This document shows positions 1 through 10,748 of a stretch of DNA of 11,990 bases, one piece after another. The stretch lies in the IMG/VR virus record IMGVR_UViG_2744054628_000002, positions 1-11,990 of that record. One strand, given 5' to 3'. The stretch's first letter is position 1. Each line of letters begins with the position of its first letter. The DNA is from a virus. Its lineage: Duplodnaviria; Heunggongvirae; Uroviricota; Caudoviricetes. The notes below the pieces were generated by a model. It saw only the letters and a program-made list of their open reading frames with translations. It searched no databases and was not told where the DNA came from. A program made the translations under genes and the position numbers.

Positions 1-61
1 CAGAGTGGGCGCGAGACGTTACGACAACTGGAAACTAAAACTGGGGCAACAAGATATCTGA
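1..61 (+). CDS. 3' end of an upstream gene (partial, runs off window start); product unknown
   Basis: Open frame from position 2 ending ...RVGARRYDNWKLKLGQQDI, with TGA at 59-61 overlapping the ATG at 61-63 (ATGA-type coupling). Too short to identify. Confidence 0.3.
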   Translation, partial: RVGARRYDNWKLKLGQQDI

Positions 62-357
62 TGAGCGTTCTGGCCAGAGAGCTGGTTGCCAGTGGCGATG
101 TATACAACTCTGGTTACGGGTTATTCCCGTCTGAACAGGCGCGTAAGGACTGGCAAAATGCCCGTAAAAAGCTCTCAAGGGCAAAGCTGAAGAAACCATC
201 TGCGGTTGATCCGGACCTTATCTGGTCATTACCTGATGGAGAAATACGTCGTTACGACAGGCGTCATAATATGATTTGTACTGAGTGTCGTAAAAGCGAA
301 GTTATGCAGCGCATATTGTCGTTTTATCAGGGTGATGTTCGGTATTTATTGAAGTGA
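61..357 (+). CDS. hypothetical small prophage early-region protein, 98 aa
   Basis: ATG 61 to TGA 355-357; start overlaps the upstream stop; basic, Cys-containing C-terminal half (ICTECRK). Family not recognised from sequence alone. Confidence 0.55.
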   Translation: MSVLARELVASGDVYNSGYGLFPSEQARKDWQNARKKLSRAKLKKPSAVDPDLIWSLPDGEIRRYDRRHNMICTECRKSEVMQRILSFYQGDVRYLLK

Positions 358-488
358 CGAGATTAAAGTGCATTAGTTCAGATGCAAATTGACATTTTGT
401 GGCACAGGGTAGAGCTAGCGTGGTTGTCCGCTTTGTGCCAATAGCGGACATTGCTGGCTCATGGTATGTTAGTTTAAGGAGGCAGGTT

Positions 489-1511
489 ATGCCCTGTATT
501 TCGCTGTGGTATAATAGTTGCGCAATTGATACAAGGGAGCGTTACATCGTGAAAATTGTTTTCGAGGTTAATGGAAAGAAAGTTCCACTAAAATCTTTAA
601 AATACATAAGCAAAAAAGATCAACTCGAAGTAATGAAAAACTGGTTCTTTGAAAACTTTGAAGATCCGGCAAATGCTTGTCCGTATGAAAGTAGAGAAGG
701 TGGCTATGCTTACATATATGGCGGGCCGTATGATGCGAGCGAAGAACTACAATCCATCTTCGGTCAATATGTTAAATCTGAGTATATTGAGGAATTAGTA
801 GATGAATTACAAACACAATGTTTTGACTGGTCTGGAAACTCAAATAATATAGATGATTGGTACGATGATGATATCTACGACGCTGTAACGTCTTCCGGTA
901 ATCCGTATTTAAAATTCATTGATAATATCGATAAAATAAAAAAACTTGCAAAAGATAAAACTGAACAACAGCAAAAAAACCACTTGCTTAGTTTGCTCTA
1001 CACGAATGTTATTACAGCTTTGGAAACGCTTTATGTTGAGCTATTCATTAATTCTATAGAGAAAGATGATGTCTACATAGCCAATTGTATAGAAAAAGGT
1101 AAGACTGAATTTAAAGTAAGCAAAGATATTGCTGCGTTGCCTTTCAAGGGTGAACCCATCGAGAAAATTAGGGGAGAGCTAATCAGGTCAATCAAGGAAC
1201 ACTTGATCAGTGCAAGCTGGCATAGCACTAAAAAGGTAATCGACCGCTATGAAGCTACATTCGATATAAAAGTACAAAAAGACTGTCCGATAGAAGCTAT
1301 TGAATTGGCAACCCTCAATCGAAATCACTTAGTGCATCGTGGTGGAAAGGATAAAGAAGGGAACCTCGTTGTGATTACAGACCAGGATCTTGAAACGCTG
1401 ATTGAAAATGCATCGAACCTGGCAATTATGCTCTACAACAGTTTAAATGTAGCAACGAATAAAACCACCATTTTGCAACCAGATGACAAACCGTTCATTC
1501 ATGAATTTTAA
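489..1511 (+). CDS. cassette protein A, unknown function; C-terminal helical region carries an R-x4-H motif (RNHLVH) compatible with a HEPN-type RNase fold. Start ambiguous: ATG 489, GTG 549, or the ORF-track GTG 399
   Basis: Long ORF ending TAA 1509-1511. ATG 489 is preceded by AAGGAGG (476-482) with a 6-nt spacer; in-frame GTG 549 is preceded by AAGGGAG (533-539). AT-rich and N/K/I/Y-rich, unlike flanking phage genes. RNHLVH is encoded at 1320-1337. I recognise no family beyond this motif. Confidence 0.7.
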   Translation: MPCISLWYNSCAIDTRERYIVKIVFEVNGKKVPLKSLKYISKKDQLEVMKNWFFENFEDPANACPYESREGGYAYIYGGPYDASEELQSIFGQYVKSEYIEELVDELQTQCFDWSGNSNNIDDWYDDDIYDAVTSSGNPYLKFIDNIDKIKKLAKDKTEQQQKNHLLSLLYTNVITALETLYVELFINSIEKDDVYIANCIEKGKTEFKVSKDIAALPFKGEPIEKIRGELIRSIKEHLISASWHSTKKVIDRYEATFDIKVQKDCPIEAIELATLNRNHLVHRGGKDKEGNLVVITDQDLETLIENASNLAIMLYNSLNVATNKTTILQPDDKPFIHEF

Positions 1512-1526
1512 TAGCGCAGGTCATAC

Positions 1527-2528
1527 ATGGATATTCGCACACGAAAGACAAAATTTTTAGAGTCGTTAGATTCAACTGAAGTGATACGCAAAGCAGTAAG
1601 TCTCGCTATAGATTGCATTATTGATAATCATAATAGTAATGAAGATACCCCCTTAGTTATTACCAGCTATGATGATCTCTGTAGAATCCAGGTGCTAAAT
1701 TATGTACAGGAGTTTTGCGAAGCTGCATTCCCTGATATGGATGAATATTACTTTAGTCCTAACATACTTCGCATCAACGGCAAGACTAGTGAAGAAGCTT
1801 GTATTAACTTAATTAAACTCTTAAGAAGTACAAAAGGCATGCTATTCTGGTCCGATGCCCCATCGTGGTTCGCTAGCCTCCCCGACGGATTATTCCATGT
1901 TGTTAACATTGATCAAAAAATCGTTACTCGCGGCCTTAATAAGAAAAACTCTAAGCCGACAATAATCAATAAAGATTACAGTGTAGATACACTACTATCA
2001 GAGCTATTTTTGAATGGCGCACACATGGAGCAACCCAACGTACACAACGTTTCTGAGGGAAACATGAAGTTCTATGATGAATGCCATGCTGGATTAATCA
2101 GACCAATACCCGCTCCAATAGGCGCGTCATACGATGAAGAGATCACAATTAATTCTCCAGATTGGCAAAAGCTCGCGTGTGTAGCTTTACGCCGCTATCA
2201 GTCGAAGGAATGTCATGACGGAATGCAATGGGATACAACCGATCATGGTTGGACTGATGTAATCGCGTATCCATTCGTCGAAGAAATACAATCAATGGAT
2301 AATAGTGGTTATCGACAATGTTTAGTTGGGCTGGTCACAATAAACAATTCAAATGCAAATTCTCCGTACCTATCTACCGTTTGGATACATCCATTTTATC
2401 GCAGGAGAGGGTTATTAAGTAAGTTATGGCCAAAATTACAAGAGTTATATGGAAGTAACTTCGAAATTGAGCGACCTAATGAAAATATGAAAGCATTTCT
2501 GAAAAGTGCGAAACACGCAGATTACTAA
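1527..2528 (+). CDS. cassette protein B, 333 aa; unknown N-terminal domain plus C-terminal region with a GNAT-acetyltransferase-like motif A (IHPFYRRRGLLSKLW)
   Basis: ATG 1527 lies 15 nt after the stop of protein A, same strand, implying an operon; stop TAA 2526-2528. The motif at about 2385-2429 resembles the acetyl-CoA-binding V-x-P-x-x-R-x-x-G-x-G/A segment of GNAT enzymes, with L in place of the second G. AT-rich like gene A. Confidence 0.75.
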   Translation: MDIRTRKTKFLESLDSTEVIRKAVSLAIDCIIDNHNSNEDTPLVITSYDDLCRIQVLNYVQEFCEAAFPDMDEYYFSPNILRINGKTSEEACINLIKLLRSTKGMLFWSDAPSWFASLPDGLFHVVNIDQKIVTRGLNKKNSKPTIINKDYSVDTLLSELFLNGAHMEQPNVHNVSEGNMKFYDECHAGLIRPIPAPIGASYDEEITINSPDWQKLACVALRRYQSKECHDGMQWDTTDHGWTDVIAYPFVEEIQSMDNSGYRQCLVGLVTINNSNANSPYLSTVWIHPFYRRRGLLSKLWPKLQELYGSNFEIERPNENMKAFLKSAKHADY

Positions 2529-2970: not shown

Positions 2971-3145
2971 GGCTGCGGGTGCTTGAGGCTATCTGTCTCA
3001 GGCATGAACACCAAAGGCAGATAGAGAAAAGCCCCAGTTAACATTACGCGTCCTGCAAGACGCTTAACATTAATCTGAGGCTCAATCTATGAACGGCAAA
3101 TCTAGGTTAGCCTCTTACGTGCCGAAAGGCAAGGAGAAGCAGGCT

Positions 3146-3301
3146 ATGAAGCAGCAAAAGGCGATGTTAATCGCCCTGATCGTCATCTGTTTAACCGTCA
3201 TAGTGACGGCACTGGTAACGAGGAAAGACCTCTGCGAGGTACGAATCCGAACCGGCCAGACGGAGGTCGCTGTCTTCACAGCTTACGAACCTGAGGAGTA
3301 A
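3146..3301 (+). CDS. hok: Hok-family type I toxin (small membrane host-killing peptide), 51 aa
   Basis: Translation MKQQKAMLIALIVICLTVIVTALVTRKDLCEVRIRTGQTEVAVFTAYEPEE matches the Hok/Gef/RelF(HokD) family as I recall it: single TM helix and conserved C-terminal AVFxAYE. ATG 3146; AAGGAG at 3131-3136. The ORF-track start 3089 is an in-frame upstream ATG. Confidence 0.9.
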   Translation: MKQQKAMLIALIVICLTVIVTALVTRKDLCEVRIRTGQTEVAVFTAYEPEE

Positions 3302-3368
3302 GAGACCAGGCGGGGGAGAATCCCTCGCCACCTCTGATGTGTCAGGCATCCTCAACGCACCCGCACTT

Positions 3369-6145: not shown

Positions 6146-6221
6146 GGCCCTTTAGCTCAGTGGTGAGAGCGAGCGACTCATAATCGCCAGGTCGCTGGTT
6201 CAAATCCAGCAAGGGCCACCA
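6146..6221 (+). tRNA. tRNA with CAT anticodon (Met or lysidine-type Ile2), 76 nt, CCA encoded; probably the ileX/ileZ-like tRNA that lambdoid and Stx phages carry after Q
   Basis: Hand-folded cloverleaf: acceptor GGCCCTT/AAGGGCC, D-arm GCTC-AGTGGTGA-GAGC, anticodon loop CTCATAA (CAT at 6179-6181), T-arm GCTGG-TTCAAAT-CCAGC, discriminator A, CCA 6219-6221. Close to E. coli ileX as recalled. Confidence 0.85.
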
Positions 6222-6366: not shown

Positions 6367-6731
6367 GTGGTTGCACTCCTGTTGTTTCTGGTGGTGATGG
6401 TGGACTTCAGCAGCCGGATAATGTCGGTGCTGTCTGATGGTGTTTTGGTGGCGGGTGTGTGGTTGTTGCTTTCCCGTTGCTGAAAAAGAAAGCATCAGGC
6501 GATTAGCAGGGTATCAGTTACCCGTTGAAATTTTTAAATACCTCACAATTCCACAGCTTGATGATTGTCTGGCTGCCGGAGAATTTGTTAAAAATTACAT
6601 CGCATGGTGAATCCCCCTGTGCGGAGGGGTAATCAGCGAGTAGGTATATGGGATAATCGCGGATTCAGGTGCTGGTACTGAATTCACCGGGAGGCACCCG
6701 GCACCATGCAATGGCACATAGCGCCACTCTC

Positions 6732-6759
6732 CAGCCCCTCTCCGGAGGGGCTGTTTATA
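6732..6759 (+). terminator. GC-rich hairpin followed by T-rich tract; candidate intrinsic terminator
   Basis: 9-bp stem CAGCCCCTC / GAGGGGCTG with TCCG loop (6732-6753), then TTTATATTGATTTTG. U-tract is interrupted, so strength uncertain. Confidence 0.4.
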
Positions 6760-6787
6760 TTGATTTTGTCAGATGTGAGTAAACTCC

Positions 6788-7123
6788 TTATGGACTTTGT
6801 TGTTTTAGTCCATAAGGACATATTTGCAGAATGCAACGGTTATTAAAGCATTCATTCAATACGTTATCTGTATTTGTAGGGCATTCCTGGCTGTTTTTGA
6901 TTAAATTCCAGAATGTTTTATTGAATGGTACTACGTTGTAAATGGTTACAGGTAGCACTTTGTTATTGAGCATGATGCCTGTGTGAGTCAGTGTAAATAT
7001 ACTTTCAGGAGGTAAGAAAGCATCCGATTGATACCAGATTATTAATTTTATTTTACTCCATATGACTGAAAAAGATATTCCGCATGATGGCTGGATAACT
7101 GTATCAATCACAATCCACTTCAT
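6788..7123 (-). CDS. hypothetical Cys-containing protein in AT-rich moron, 111 aa, no recognisable family
   Basis: ATG at 7123 (- strand) preceded by AGGA with ~6-nt spacer; stop at 6788-6790. Opposite strand to all flanking phage genes, AT-rich, and sits in the Q-to-S cargo slot. No signal peptide evident. Confidence 0.6.
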
Positions 7124-7382
7124 TTACTTTCCTTGTTTATGCCTTGCTGGTGATGTTCTGAAAAGTATAAATGATATTTTTGAATTAAACCATAGAGCAG
7201 AATTATTTTTCTGATGTTGTTTATTGTTTATTTAAATACAGGGTGGTTTATATCTCGTCTTGTAGTTTATCCATGCATATCTGCTTGATAATCAGGTTTT
7301 TATTTAAGGTATGGTTTTGTGTTTTTTCTGTATTACATGTCAGGTATTTTAAAGAATTATTTTTCAGATGGTGGAAAGAACC

Positions 7383-7571
7383 ATGGCATTTAAACACTAT
7401 GATGTTGTCAGGGCGGCGCCGCCGTCAGATCTTGCGGAAAAGCTGACACATAAACTGAAAGAGGGCTGGCAGCCGTTTGGTAGTCCGGTGGCCATAACCC
7501 CTTATACCCTGATGCAGGCGATTGCAGCAGAAGGTGATGTGGTGGTCAGCGGTGCAACTGAGCCGGAGTGA
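7383..7571 (+). CDS. small conserved lambdoid-prophage protein found upstream of lysis genes (possibly DUF1737-like); function unknown
   Basis: ORF 7368..7571; internal ATG 7383 has a better purine-rich RBS (GGTGGAAAGA). N-terminus MAFKHYDVVRAAPPSDLAEKL resembles small proteins I recall at this position; family name is tentative. Confidence 0.5.
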   Translation: MAFKHYDVVRAAPPSDLAEKLTHKLKEGWQPFGSPVAITPYTLMQAIAAEGDVVVSGATEPE

Positions 7572-7814
7572 TACTACGTCATCGTACTGGCCCGGCATTC
7601 CAGGCCATAAAAGACAGTCTGGCAGTGGGACTAAATGCACTGACGCTGACGGATATTACCAAAAATGCAACGTATGGCGTTGAGATAGAAAGTCTGGTGC
7701 TGGAGATAAATGCACCGGCATCATCATAAAAAGTGAGCCAGTCAAATGGAAGGTATCGTTAAACTCACCGGTAGTGTCAGTGGGTCGTCTGAGACGCTTG
7801 CATGAGTTATCAGA

Positions 7815-7843
7815 GCCATCAGTAGTTAACTGGTGGCTTTTTT
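7815..7843 (+). terminator. intrinsic terminator immediately upstream of the holin gene
   Basis: 8-bp stem GCCATCAG / CTGGTGGC (one G-T wobble), 7-nt loop, then TTTTTT (7838-7843). Lies inside the GTG-initiated extension of ORF 7774..8094, supporting the ATG 7879 start. Confidence 0.55.
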
Positions 7844-7878
7844 ATTGTTGTCAGCTTCCGGATAACGGGAGACGGGGT

Positions 7879-8094
7879 ATGGACCAGATGGAAAAAATCA
7901 CAACAGGTGTGTCATACACCACGTCAGCGGTGGGAACGGGCTACTGGTTCCTGCAGTTGCTGGACAGGGTTTCCCCGTCTCAGTGGGCGGCAATAGGCGT
8001 GCTGGGGAGTCTGCTGTTTGGGCTGCTGACATATCTGACTAACCTGTATTTCAAAATCAGAGAGGACCGTCGTAAGGCTGCACGGGGAGAGTAA
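7879..8094 (+). CDS. S: class II holin / pinholin (phage 21 S-like), 71 aa, with dual-start motif Met1...Met4
   Basis: [15 protein letters not shown]...[40 protein letters not shown]: two TM segments plus charged tail, similar to S21 as recalled. GGGAGA RBS 7867-7872, 6-nt spacer. Confidence 0.85.
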
Positions 8095-8098
8095 TTCA

Positions 8099-8449
8099 AT
8101 GACTCAAAACTATGAACTGATTGTGAAAGGGATCCGCAATTTTGAGAATAAAGTTACGGTAACTTTAGCGTTACGGGACAAAAAACGCTTTGACGGTGAA
8201 ATTTTTGACCTGGACATCTCGCTGGACCGTGTTGAAGGTGCCGCGCTGGAGTTTTATGAGGCAGCAGCCAGAATGAGCATCAGACAGGTCTTCCTGGATG
8301 TTGCTGCCGGGTTATGTGAAGGGGATGAGCAGTCGCCGGAAAAGCGCCCCGTAATTTTAGAGGCGCAGAATGTATGGATAACCTACAAAGGAAAGCTACC
8401 GGGAAGAATTACTGGTTCTCTGAAGACTCCTCCGGAATCACAACCTTAA
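8099..8449 (+). CDS. hypothetical protein between holin and endolysin (YdfR-like by position and size; possibly DUF1327), 116 aa
   Basis: ATG 8099 follows holin stop TAA 8092-8094 by 4 nt. Positional match to ydfR between essQ and rrrQ in Qin, from memory. No catalytic motif recognised. Confidence 0.65.
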   Translation: MTQNYELIVKGIRNFENKVTVTLALRDKKRFDGEIFDLDISLDRVEGAALEFYEAAARMSIRQVFLDVAAGLCEGDEQSPEKRPVILEAQNVWITYKGKLPGRITGSLKTPPESQP

Positions 8450-8512
8450 GTCACTGACCGGAACAGATAAACCTGTCCGTGGGCAGAAACCGATAAATCC
8501 TGATAAATATCC

Positions 8513-9046
8513 ATGAACGCAAAAATCAGATACGGCCTGTCGGCTGCCGTTCTGGCACTGATTGCCGTCGGTGCGCCCGCGCCTGATATTCTCGACCAGT
8601 TTCTGGATGAAAAAGAAGGTAACCACACAACGGCATACCGCGATGGGTCCGGCATCTGGACCATCTGTCGGGGTGCCACGATGGTGGATGGAAAACCCGT
8701 TTTTCCCGGTATGAAACTGTCGAAGGAAAAATGCGACCAGGTCAACGCCATTGAGCGTGATAAGGCGCTGGCATGGGTGGAGCGCAATATTAAAGTACTA
8801 CTGACCGAACCACAAAAAGCGGGTATAGCGTCATTCTGTCCCTATAACATTGGCCCCGGTAAGTGTTTCCCGTCGACGTTTTATAAGCGGCTGAATGCCG
8901 GTGATCGTAAGGGCGCATGCGAGGCGATTCGCTGGTGGATAAAAGATGGTGGGCGCGATTGCCGCATACGTTCAAATAACTGCTATGGACAGGTTATTCG
9001 TCGTGACCAGGAAAGCGCATTAGCCTGTTGGGGGATAGAGCAGTGA
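8513..9046 (+). CDS. R: SAR endolysin (T4-lysozyme-like muramidase, phage 21 R / RrrQ-like), 177 aa
   Basis: Gly/Ala-rich hydrophobic N-terminal signal-anchor-release segment ([16 protein letters not shown]), then E-x8-D-x5-T catalytic pattern ([16 protein letters not shown]) and C-terminal ALACWG, as in R21-type lysozymes. Confidence 0.9.
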
Positions 9047-9504
9047 GCAGAGTCGCCGCGATTATTTATGCTTTGGTTATCTGCATCATCGTCTGCCTGT
9101 CGTGGGCGGTCAATCATTACCGTGATAACGCCATCGCCTACAAAGAACAGCGTGATAAAAAAGTCAGTGAGCTGAAGCAGGCGATCGCCACTATCGCTGA
9201 CATGCAGCAGCGTCAGCGTGATGTTGCTGCGCTCGATGCAAAATACACGAGGGAGTTAGCTGATGCGAAAGCTGAAAATGATGCTCTGCGTGATGATGTT
9301 GCCGCTGGTCGTCGTCGGTTGCACATCAAAGCAGTCTGTCAGTCAGTGCGTGAAGCCACCACCGCCTCCGGCGTGGATAATGCAGCCACCCCCCGACTGG
9401 CAGACACCGCTGAACGGGATTATTTCACCCTCAGAGAGAGGCTGATCACTATGCAAAAACAACTGGAAGGAACCCAGAAGTATATTAATGAGCAGTGCAG
9501 ATAG
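9043..9504 (+). CDS. Rz: i-spanin Rz, 153 aa
   Basis: GTG 9043 overlaps the R stop (TGA 9044-9046) and follows GGGGGA. Product [31 protein letters not shown]... is near-identical to lambda Rz as recalled. The ORF-track start 9028 is TTG inside R. Confidence 0.9.
9263..9445 (+). CDS. Rz1: o-spanin Rz1 lipoprotein, 60 aa, embedded in the +1 frame of Rz
   Basis: [24 protein letters not shown]...[29 protein letters not shown]: lipobox VVGC, proline-rich; matches lambda Rz1 as recalled. GGGAG RBS 9251-9255. Confidence 0.9.
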
Positions 9505-9535
9505 AGCTGCCCATATCGATGGGCAACTCATGCAA

Positions 9536-9829
9536 TTATTGTGAGCAATACACACGCGCTTCCAGTGGAGTATAAATGCCTAAAGTAATAAAACCGAGAA
9601 ATCCATTTACGAATGTTTGCTGGGTTTCTGTTTTAACAACATTTTCTGCGCCGCCACAAATTTTGGCTGCATCAACAGTTTTCTCCTGTCCAATTCCCGA
9701 AACGAAGAAATGATGGGTGATGGTTTCCTTTGGTGTTACTGCTGTCGGTTTGTTTCCAACAGTAAACGTCTGTTGAGCACATCCTGTAATAAGCATTGCC
9801 AGAGCGGCAGAAAACAACATTTTTTTCAT
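9536..9829 (-). CDS. bor: Bor lipoprotein (serum-resistance / Iss family), 97 aa
   Basis: From ATG at 9829 (- strand): MKKMLFSAALAMLITGCAQQTFTV...LEARVYCSQ with lipobox ITGC; near-identical to lambda Bor as recalled. The ORF-track start at 9877 is an upstream extension. Convergent with Rz. Confidence 0.9.
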   Translation of the reverse strand: MKKMLFSAALAMLITGCAQQTFTVGNKPTAVTPKETITHHFFVSGIGQEKTVDAAKICGGAENVVKTETQQTFVNGFLGFITLGIYTPLEARVYCSQ

Positions 9830-10212
9830 CTTATTATCCTGCATTGTTAAAAACGGCAGAATCCTATGTGACAACAATTAAACGATAGTTAAATGGATTG
9901 ATGAAAATTAAAACTATATAGGTGGATGCTCAGCCTATCGGAGGTAGTCAGGATTTGAATGTCAGTCTGTTGTCGGCATTCTGGCAATGCAATTTGGATA
10001 AAGCGGGGATTAAAAAGATAGAGGCGAGCCGGTCAGGTAGAAATGAATCAGGCTCAAAGTGAAGCGGAAAAGGTCTGTGGCACAAGCTGATGCAGCCATA
10101 ATTACAGCCTGATGATTTGTGGAATGAAACATGTTGAACCTCCTTAATTGATGTTATTCGAGTGATGAAGGCATTCTGTCCTTCTATAGTGTCCAGTAAA
10201 TCAAACAGGAAA

Positions 10213-10234
10213 CTTGTCCAACGTGTTGGACAAG
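10213..10234. repeat. perfect 10-bp inverted repeat with 2-bp spacer (CTTGTCCAAC GT GTTGGACAAG), candidate operator
   Basis: Arms are exact reverse complements; additional TGTCC-containing half-site-like copies lie just upstream (~10177-10196). About 90 bp upstream of the G start. Confidence 0.5.
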
Positions 10235-10325
10235 CCTCTCCATTAGTGAGTTGTATTGATCACAACTCTACAAAGAATTCATTACTGGGTAGATGAAAAT
10301 AGTTTCACTATGAATGGAGGAGGCT

Positions 10326-10748
10326 ATGTCGGTGGCTTCTTCATTGGAGTACCGTCAGTTAATGAGGATAGATGTGATGACTAAAAATATCCGTAATCTG
10401 GCACTGGCAGCGATGTCGGGGTTTCGCCATAAAACTGTTGATGTGCCTGAATGGGAAGGGGCAACGGTTGTATTACGGGAACCTTCTGCAGAAGCCTGGT
10501 TGCGCTGGCAGGAGATCGTTAAAGCAAAAGATGATGAGACACCGTTATCCGTTGCGGAGCTCGCCCGCCGAAATCTGGAAGCGGATGTTGAACTGTTCAT
10601 CGATGTTCTGTGTGATACCGGACTGCAACCTGTATTTTCAGTGGATGATCGTGAACAGGTGATTGCCGTGTATGGCCCGGTGCATGCGCGGCTTCTTCGG
10701 CAGTCTCTGGAACTGATCAGTGATGCCGGCGAGGTTAAAAAAAAGTAG
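10326..10748 (+). CDS. G: tail assembly chaperone G, 140 aa
   Basis: ATG 10326 with GGAGG RBS (10316-10320); ORF ends EVKKK-TAG with the slippery heptamer A_AAA_AAG (10739-10745) just before the stop. The ORF-track start 10314 is an upstream in-frame ATG without a good RBS. Confidence 0.75.
   Translation: MSVASSLEYRQLMRIDVMTKNIRNLALAAMSGFRHKTVDVPEWEGATVVLREPSAEAWLRWQEIVKAKDDETPLSVAELARRNLEADVELFIDVLCDTGLQPVFSVDDREQVIAVYGPVHARLLRQSLELISDAGEVKKK

Follow-up and report, generated by a model that had tools for sequence, protein, structure and literature searches.

A prophage cargo operon of E. coli is the published anti-phage locus DS-33: a HEPN protein that probably defends by itself and a separately mobile GNAT-fold neighbour

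The two AT-rich genes that lie upstream of the hok locus in the DNA analysed here (the window, a stretch of 11,990 nucleotides from a virus of the Caudoviricetes) form an already known locus, DS-33, which was reported by DeWeirdt, Mahoney and Laub ('DefensePredictor', Science 2026; PMC13092281, Tables S6/S7). An earlier note, made from the letters of the sequence, had put the pair forward as a candidate undescribed defence system; the anti-phage part of that proposal stands, while the claim of novelty falls with the publication of DS-33. We consider it highly probable that the product of the first gene (protein A) is a self-sufficient single-protein defence with an infection-activated HEPN domain, and that the second gene (coding for protein B) is separately mobile cargo that is not needed for the measured defence.

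Results

DS-33 was found by searching supplementary tables for the RefSeq accession, and a literature search for HEPN plus GNAT as a described pair returned nothing relevant. The locus is listed in Table S6 of the source paper under the working id 'GNAT' (NZ_QOWT01000046.1 6922-8901, WP_014639476.1 + WP_000354965.1), where it is marked as defensive (TRUE) with a DefensePredictor log-odds of 9.45; it was cloned from an ECOR strain and validated (PMC13092281). Protein A of the window is identical to the tested DS-33 protein at 320 of 320 residues, and WP_014639476.1 is also the RefSeq annotation of A in S88. Protein B agrees with the tested DS-33B at 332 of 333 residues, the single difference being a proline in the window and a leucine in the tested protein at position 289. 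Gene order and the 15-nt spacer are likewise the same as in the window (6922-7884 and 7900-8901 in NZ_QOWT01000046.1). DS-33 is not discussed in the main text of the source paper, which gives no mechanism, trigger or RNA target for it (PMC13092281).

The published tests show 2-6 logs of protection by DS-33 against T7, T3, Bas67 and Bas26; for these four phages the first screen gave 4.7 for Bas26, 3.0 for T7, 3.5 for T3 and 2.3 for Bas67 (PMC13092281). The values for the mutant series are expressed as -log10 EOP in two replicates (Table S7, PMC13092281), and the deletion strains were challenged with five phages. Wild-type DS-33 scored 3.8/2.6 against T7, 3.3/2.4 against T3, 4.0/2.0 against Bas67, 5.0/5.9 against Bas26 and 0.8/0.1 against T5. 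In both replicates, protection was kept upon deletion of the GNAT gene (T7 4.8/4.3; T3 3.3/3.3; Bas67 4.0/3.3; Bas26 5.0/4.9; T5 1.7/0.5) and lost upon deletion of the HEPN gene (T7 0.1/-0.3; T3 -0.5/0; Bas67 0/-0.2; Bas26 0.5/0.3; T5 0.5/0.1) or with the R258A substitution (T7 0.8/0.5; T3 -0.3/0.3; Bas67 0.5/0; Bas26 0.7/0.4; T5 0.4/0.3), the T5 values being small in every strain (PMC13092281). These deletion and R258A data indicate that the HEPN protein is both necessary and sufficient for the measured defence and that the arginine of its Rx4H motif is required. As far as tested, B is dispensable for DS-33 defence, the published test having been done with the L289 allele.

The same values bear on the possibility that B is a brake or a self-immunity factor, that is, a GNAT acetylating A, the trigger of A or its RNA target and so damping HEPN activation, which might for example allow the host prophage to finish its lytic cycle. 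In 9 of 10 phage-by-replicate comparisons, the GNAT deletion lies at or above the wild type (6 higher, 3 equal, 1 lower), T7 reaching 4.8 instead of 3.8 in one replicate and 4.3 instead of 2.6 in the other, and Bas67 3.3 instead of 2.0 in one replicate. The spacing of A and B is also tight and conserved, and self-targeting must be avoided by HEPN defences of prophages, according to the HepS and Tha reports. These differences are nevertheless within about 1 log and may reflect expression effects of the deletion, and a possibly hypomorphic B allele in the test makes it difficult to interpret them. Besides, most A homologues, prophage-borne ones included, come without B, and B is also found far from any A. 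A braking role of B appears to us distinctly unlikely.

As announced by the earlier note, two co-directional ORFs separated by 15 nt exist, with the stop of A at 1511 and the start of B at 1527. Its start for A, at 399, has to be replaced by a conserved GTG at 549, which yields a protein of 320 aa: gene A, or DS-33A (WP_014639476.1), spans 549..1511 on the plus strand and encodes a putative PF18870 N-terminal domain followed by a HEPN domain, its role of defence effector resting on identity to the DS-33 protein and on the published mutants. Translation would begin from a Shine-Dalgarno sequence AAGGGAG (533-539) and the GTG codon (549-551), both on the plus strand (533..551). In an upstream DNA alignment of E. 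coli, Erwinia, Aeromonas, Yersinia and metagenomic copies, the GTG start and an AAGGAG-type Shine-Dalgarno sequence are kept in all 7 informative homologous loci. Homologues of A are 310-325 aa long, their first residue being that of GTG 549, and the 320-aa form is the one used by RefSeq and by the DS-33 paper. Position 399 merely opens the longest possible ORF, against which the homologues and the conserved GTG argue, and ATG 489, the start chosen in the PHROG family and one with a strong AGGAGG site, is not conserved, e.g. in Erwinia.

A candidate promoter of A can be read from the sequence as the extended -10 element TGGTATAAT (507..515, plus strand), 34 nt 5' of the start codon. The pattern TGnTAnAAT occurs at equal distance in Erwinia, in Aeromonas and in locus L134, and so in 4 of the 4 paired-clade copies with upstream DNA. 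A two-hexamer promoter scan did not pick up TGGTATAAT, owing to its poor -35. We infer that TGGTATAAT is the own extended -10 promoter of A; an own promoter is what one would expect of a defence gene located within the early operon, which is repressed in a lysogen. The sequence TTGACA at 391-396 was considered as a -35 and discarded, as it is followed by no usable -10 and the promoter scan was negative there.

Protein A combines two domains. Its N-terminal domain (residues 26-92; 624..824, plus strand) probably belongs to HEPN_RES_NTD1 (PF18870), a putative sensor or regulatory module, with a Pfam match of 22.2 bits (E = 2e-4) that lies below the gathering score of 27.4 bits. The same family is matched at E <= 1e-3 by 44 of 64 aligned A homologues, several of which have precomputed matches. 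The HEPN domain follows at about residues 140-308 (966..1472, plus strand); RiboL-PSP-HEPN (PF18735) is matched by 28 of the 64 aligned homologues (best E = 7e-11), and the predicted structure of A (pLDDT 89) shows the all-alpha helical bundle of the HEPN fold. An Rx4-6H motif is present in the form of the putative catalytic Rx4H motif R258-N-H-L-V-H263 (1320..1337, plus strand), identified from the translation and from its invariance: R258, H263 and R264 do not vary among the 64 aligned sequences (motif RNHLVHR). The HEPN-like R-x4-H of A proposed in the earlier note is thereby corroborated, in the form RNHLVH. No RES domain was matched in A, whose C-terminal domain is HEPN, so that A does not fall under the definition of aRES. 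Elsewhere, PF18870 is also found fused to PIN_8 and to an HTH-M78 protein, as well as at the N-terminus of many proteins of about 280 aa in which Pfam matches nothing towards the C-terminus.

Other resources were less informative. PADLOC v2 gave noise only for A and nothing for B, NCBIfam nothing meaningful for either, and PHROGs only families of 'unknown function'; PDB sequences searched with profiles of the A family and of the N-terminal domain of B gave no match. The PADLOC check suggested previously was thus carried through without useful match; DS-33 is missing only in older resources, PADLOC v2 being one of them.

Gene B (1527..2528, plus strand; WP_000354966.1 allele) encodes 333 aa that, according to the predicted structure (pLDDT 90.6), form an N-terminal domain of about residues 1-185 and a C-terminal module with the GNAT fold (about residues 190-333; 2094..2528, plus strand). 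For residues ~1-185, no match was found in Pfam, in NCBIfam or in the profile search of PDB sequences, and the GNAT half dominated both fold searches. The Pfam GNAT match of B reaches 19.9 vs 20.7 bits. The motif A region, P289-F-Y-R292-R-R-G295-L-L297 (2391..2417, plus strand), rests on the translation and on conservation. Compared with the GNAT motif A R/Q-x-x-G-x-G/A, R292 and G295 are present and the final G/A is L297 (Lys or Leu in homologues); R292 is invariant in B homologues. The GNAT-like motif A of the earlier note is present as the motif-A-like PFYRRRGLL and sits in a GNAT fold. An exhaustive profile search also turned up stand-alone versions of the C-terminal module, a family of about 160 aa in which the same motifs recur, and the family of this module matches the phage protein family phrog_36762.

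Residue 289 of B deserves attention, as it is the conserved proline of GNAT motif A (V-x-P-x-x-R-x-x-G) and is Pro in 44 of 44 homologues and likewise in the stand-alone family of about 160 aa. P289, as encoded in the window, marks the common allele, found on at least 1000 contigs, whereas DS-33 as tested carries the rare L289 allele (WP_000354965.1), found on 31 contigs. Since the tested allele is rare and changed at this conserved proline, B was possibly already inactive in the published test. It could then be that the P289 form of B is functional, that the published dispensability reflects a crippled minor allele and that B is a real partner of A or a second defence activity; we judge this rather unlikely.

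The distribution of the two genes was examined in 137 loci taken from collections of genomes, viruses and metagenomes. Fourteen loci, representing five lineages, have A and B side by side; A occurs without B in 30 loci, a count restricted to loci with room to judge, and B without A in 7. The paired lineages are E. coli (the window), an IMG/VR contig (A/B identity 96/92%), Erwinia (93/89%), an Aeromonas mobilisable element with a relaxase (86/79%) and a Logan contig (78/74%). A-alone copies are 28-77% identical; some are in prophages too (IMG/VR loci L097-L106), and all A-only loci are in unrelated elements, none in the same lambdoid slot. The 182-aa downstream neighbour of a distant A homologue (L004) was checked as a short B and rejected (hhalign probability 0.3%).

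Neighbour-joining trees group all paired A sequences in a single clade, and the paired B sequences branch in matching order, while B-alone copies are nested among paired B and also fall outside them. This pattern suggests that A and B were ancestrally solitary, were joined once, and that B later became solitary again. The A-B spacer is an identical 15 nt in all five paired lineages, and the identical spacer and congruent trees persist down to about 75% identity, a hint that the linkage is to some extent under selection.

A rival reading is an obligate two-component system, either a toxin-antitoxin pair or a sensor with its effector. The co-directional arrangement of A and B 15 nt apart, their shared AT-richness, their conservation as a pair with congruent trees in five lineages and the fact that the sole knockout test had B mutated at an invariant residue all speak for it. 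On the other hand, the GNAT-deletion strain is viable with full defence, and the HEPN-deletion strain, i.e. B alone, is viable without defence (PMC13092281). Solitary A (30 loci) and solitary B (7 loci) argue in the same direction, as does the lack of an RHH, MNT or other antitoxin-type partner; across homologues, partner co-occurrence was not found at the level of an obligate two-gene system. An obligate pair is in our view highly improbable, and the earlier suggestion of A plus B as a functional two-component or toxin-antitoxin module does not hold as far as tested, since the GNAT deletion defends and the genes are apart in most genomes.

B-alone copies are found 3' of an alpha-type primase in a P4-like satellite, in ICE cargo adjoining ParE/PaaA2, next to an Abi_2/HEPN gene, and in a defence island (TerB - BrxC/D-like ATPase - helicase, B, Mrr, HEPN_Toprim_N). 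Such intact copies in cargo sites of mobile genetic elements and in a defence island would fit B as an independent single-gene module of defence or counter-defence against phages or elements outside the tested panel, and so would the stand-alone family of its C-terminal module with its match to phrog_36762. DefensePredictor gives B a weakly positive log-odds of 1.08, under the authors' threshold of 4 (PMC13092281). Furthermore, B alone (the HEPN deletion, with L289) gave no protection against T7, T5, T3, Bas67 or Bas26, and B has no PADLOC match. We retain an independent module as a tentative possibility, although we would not bet on it.

The window belongs to an E. coli prophage of the lambdoid, Rac/Qin-like type. 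Its identity is 100% with NZ_OZ547155.1 and 99.9% with S88, IHE3034, APEC O1 and ATCC 11775. The whole 2.4-kb query is present in 205 of 5426 complete genomes, and about 1540 complete genomes have only parts of it, flank pieces being among the partial matches listed. In S88, the prophage adjoins ompW and reads repressor, cro, ydaT, replication gene, DUF977, two 'hypothetical proteins', hokD, DUF968, rusA, Q. The AT-rich island perceived by eye was confirmed by computation: A and B together (549-2528) have a GC content of 37.8% versus 49.0% in the remainder of the window, every other stretch of 1980 nt further downstream has at least 43.8%, and GC3 is 0.35/0.36 in A/B versus 0.49-0.55 in the DUF968 and Q genes.

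On its left, the slot is bordered by the 3' part of a DUF977 gene of the prophage early region (61..357, plus strand; Pfam DUF977 E = 8e-17, RefSeq annotation) and on its right by the hok locus (2977..3302, plus strand), which comprises a sok antisense RNA match (2977-3151; Rfam, 110 bits) and hokD (3147-3302, annotated in S88). The order A-B-sok/hokD-DUF968-rusA-Q found here compares with relB-relE-hokD-rem-ydfU(DUF968)-Q in K-12 Qin, so that the Qin map given in the earlier note was correct and relBE occupies the same slot as A-B, directly upstream of hokD. relBE is a type II toxin-antitoxin system whose toxin is an mRNA interferase. It shares no homology with A-B and measures about 0.5 kb versus 2 kb; no RelB or RelE match was obtained for A or B in Pfam or NCBIfam, in agreement with the earlier note, and the view of A-B as horizontally acquired cargo in the relBE slot was borne out. 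In phage Evi, a regulator and a small acetyltransferase lie between the same two flanks, which makes the DUF977/hok slot a cargo-exchange site.

Discussion

The mechanism that we favour starts with the transcription of A from what appears to be its own extended -10 promoter, thanks to which A can be made in the lysogen. The PF18870 domain most likely keeps the HEPN domain inactive until infection. Upon infection, this block would be released, RNA would be cut through the Rx4H site and phage growth would stop. The RNase activity of A, its target, its trigger and an abortive-infection outcome are put forward by analogy with HepS and aRES. As for its neighbour, B would have joined A once, and the resulting two-gene cassette would since have moved among the lambdoid prophage slot, the mobilisable element of Aeromonas and further elements. 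In the prophage analysed here, it sits in the variable cargo slot, where K-12 Qin has relBE.

The role of B is to be read with its allele in mind, since the sole functional test was run with a rare allele in which an invariant proline of motif A is changed. Foremost among the guesses, B would be a defence-related acyltransferase acting independently or would modulate A. If the P289 form of B were functional, DS-33 would be a real two-part system, in which a GNAT-fold enzyme either tunes a HEPN effector as a brake or self-immunity factor or adds an acetylation-based anti-phage activity; neither of these GNAT roles is a described defence mechanism. More broadly, the DUF977/hok slot of Rac/Qin-like prophages emerges as a place where relBE (K-12), DS-33 (here) and a regulator with a small acetyltransferase (Evi) are found.

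Both folds of the locus are known in toxin roles. GNAT toxins of type II toxin-antitoxin systems (TacT/AtaT/ItaT) are about 170 aa long and come with an RHH antitoxin, and HEPN toxins of the HEPN/MNT systems have an MNT nucleotidyltransferase as partner. B differs from the former by its 333 aa and extra domain, and A is non-toxic by itself; no RHH/DUF1778 or MNT antitoxin domain was detected in A, B or the flanks. The nearest earlier defence protein is subunit B of PD-T4-2 (RiboL-PSP-HEPN), with an HHblits probability of 96% over 55% of A (PMC13092281), although the PADLOC models of PD-T4-2 gave no match at E <= 1. PD-T4-2 (Vassallo et al. 2022) differs from A in its partner gene and in its N-terminal domain.

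HepS of the Gifsy-1 prophage and Tha of S. aureus prophages are single-protein HEPN abortive-infection systems. They share with A the HEPN fold without further sequence relationship and do not carry PF18870. Their triggers are tail proteins of siphoviruses, whereas DS-33 blocks the podoviruses T7 and T3, and the trigger of DS-33 is for that reason probably a different one.

The closest architectural parallel is offered by aRES, which is defined by a RES domain and PF18870 in one protein (Osterman et al., bioRxiv 2026, 10.64898/2026.01.28.702374). These stand-alone RES NADases protect E. coli and bring about growth arrest upon infection (10.64898/2026.01.28.702374). Like A, in which PF18870 is the putative N-terminal domain, they are stand-alone defence proteins that carry a toxic effector domain behind PF18870, are not in an operon with a partner, and occur in E. 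coli and other Enterobacterales. The effector of aRES is a RES NAD+ phosphorylase and that of A a HEPN domain, a predicted RNase, so that the killing chemistry of aRES and the phage counter-measures against it (NARP1-AP, aRad1) would not carry over to A. With the same N-terminal domain, A would be the HEPN-effector counterpart of aRES. Most simply, PF18870 would be a portable module for sensing or regulation, A representing the version with a HEPN effector, and this link between DS-33A and aRES makes PF18870 a candidate for a general infection-sensing module with swappable effectors (HEPN, RES, PIN).

Other contexts of the cassette and of its slot

A part of protein B, the 333-residue product of the second cassette gene, also occurs joined to a replication-type domain. 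In L092 (IMG/VR 2585427777_000024), protein P0148 (5644-6606) consists of a DnaC-like helicase-loader N-terminus, with its Walker A motif GKPGTGKN present, joined in frame to B residues 133-333. This locus is a deletion variant of the window's prophage: gene A (encoding the HEPN-type partner) is gone, as are codons 1-132 of B. The fusion protein was found on nine contigs. The GNAT-fold C-terminal module of B is also found on its own: in L137 (536-3420), a 160-residue stand-alone homologue overlaps the end of an 802-residue ORF by 7 nt. This ORF has no match in Pfam, and the arrangement may be one in which the module has another kind of partner.

In the Aeromonas caviae element (L130-L132), the A+B cassette adjoins two genes on the opposite strand (about 9212-10293), one with a SIR2 domain and one with a cREC_REC domain. 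This pair is probably another defence module, and its adjacency therefore places the cassette within a small defence cluster in that element. A third kind of cargo for the slot between the DUF977 gene and hok is carried by phage Evi (L129; LR597642.1, 3122-4335), where a 255-residue "transcriptional regulator" is accompanied by a 143-residue "putative acetyltransferase" in divergent orientation, possibly constituting a small GNAT toxin module. In the window itself, the 450-nt gap separating gene B from sok contains a candidate ORF for a cysteine-rich protein of 96 residues (2640-2930), which is identical in L092 and absent from the annotation of the closely related prophage of E. coli S88.

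Accessory regions and integrity of the prophage

Downstream of the Q antiterminator gene, the window carries a single tRNA-Met (CAT; 6146-6221) and the sRNA STnc100 (6572-6762; 132 bits), whereas in the S88 prophage this place is taken by a DNA methyltransferase gene and by three tRNA genes, one for Ile and two for Arg. A second AT-rich island follows (6750-7350; 32% GC), with an AT content above that of A+B. Since it encloses a minus-strand ORF of 111 residues (6788-7123) with no match in Pfam, we regard the island as a candidate for another moron.

After the lysis genes comes bor (Lambda_Bor; minus strand), in a 41% GC patch within 9536-10748, directly followed by a tail assembly chaperone gene (from 10314). 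No terminase, portal or head gene lies between these two genes in that interval, whereas terminase genes come after the lysis region in the S88 prophage. Judged by this comparison, the window's copy looks like a defective prophage, deleted for its packaging and head genes.
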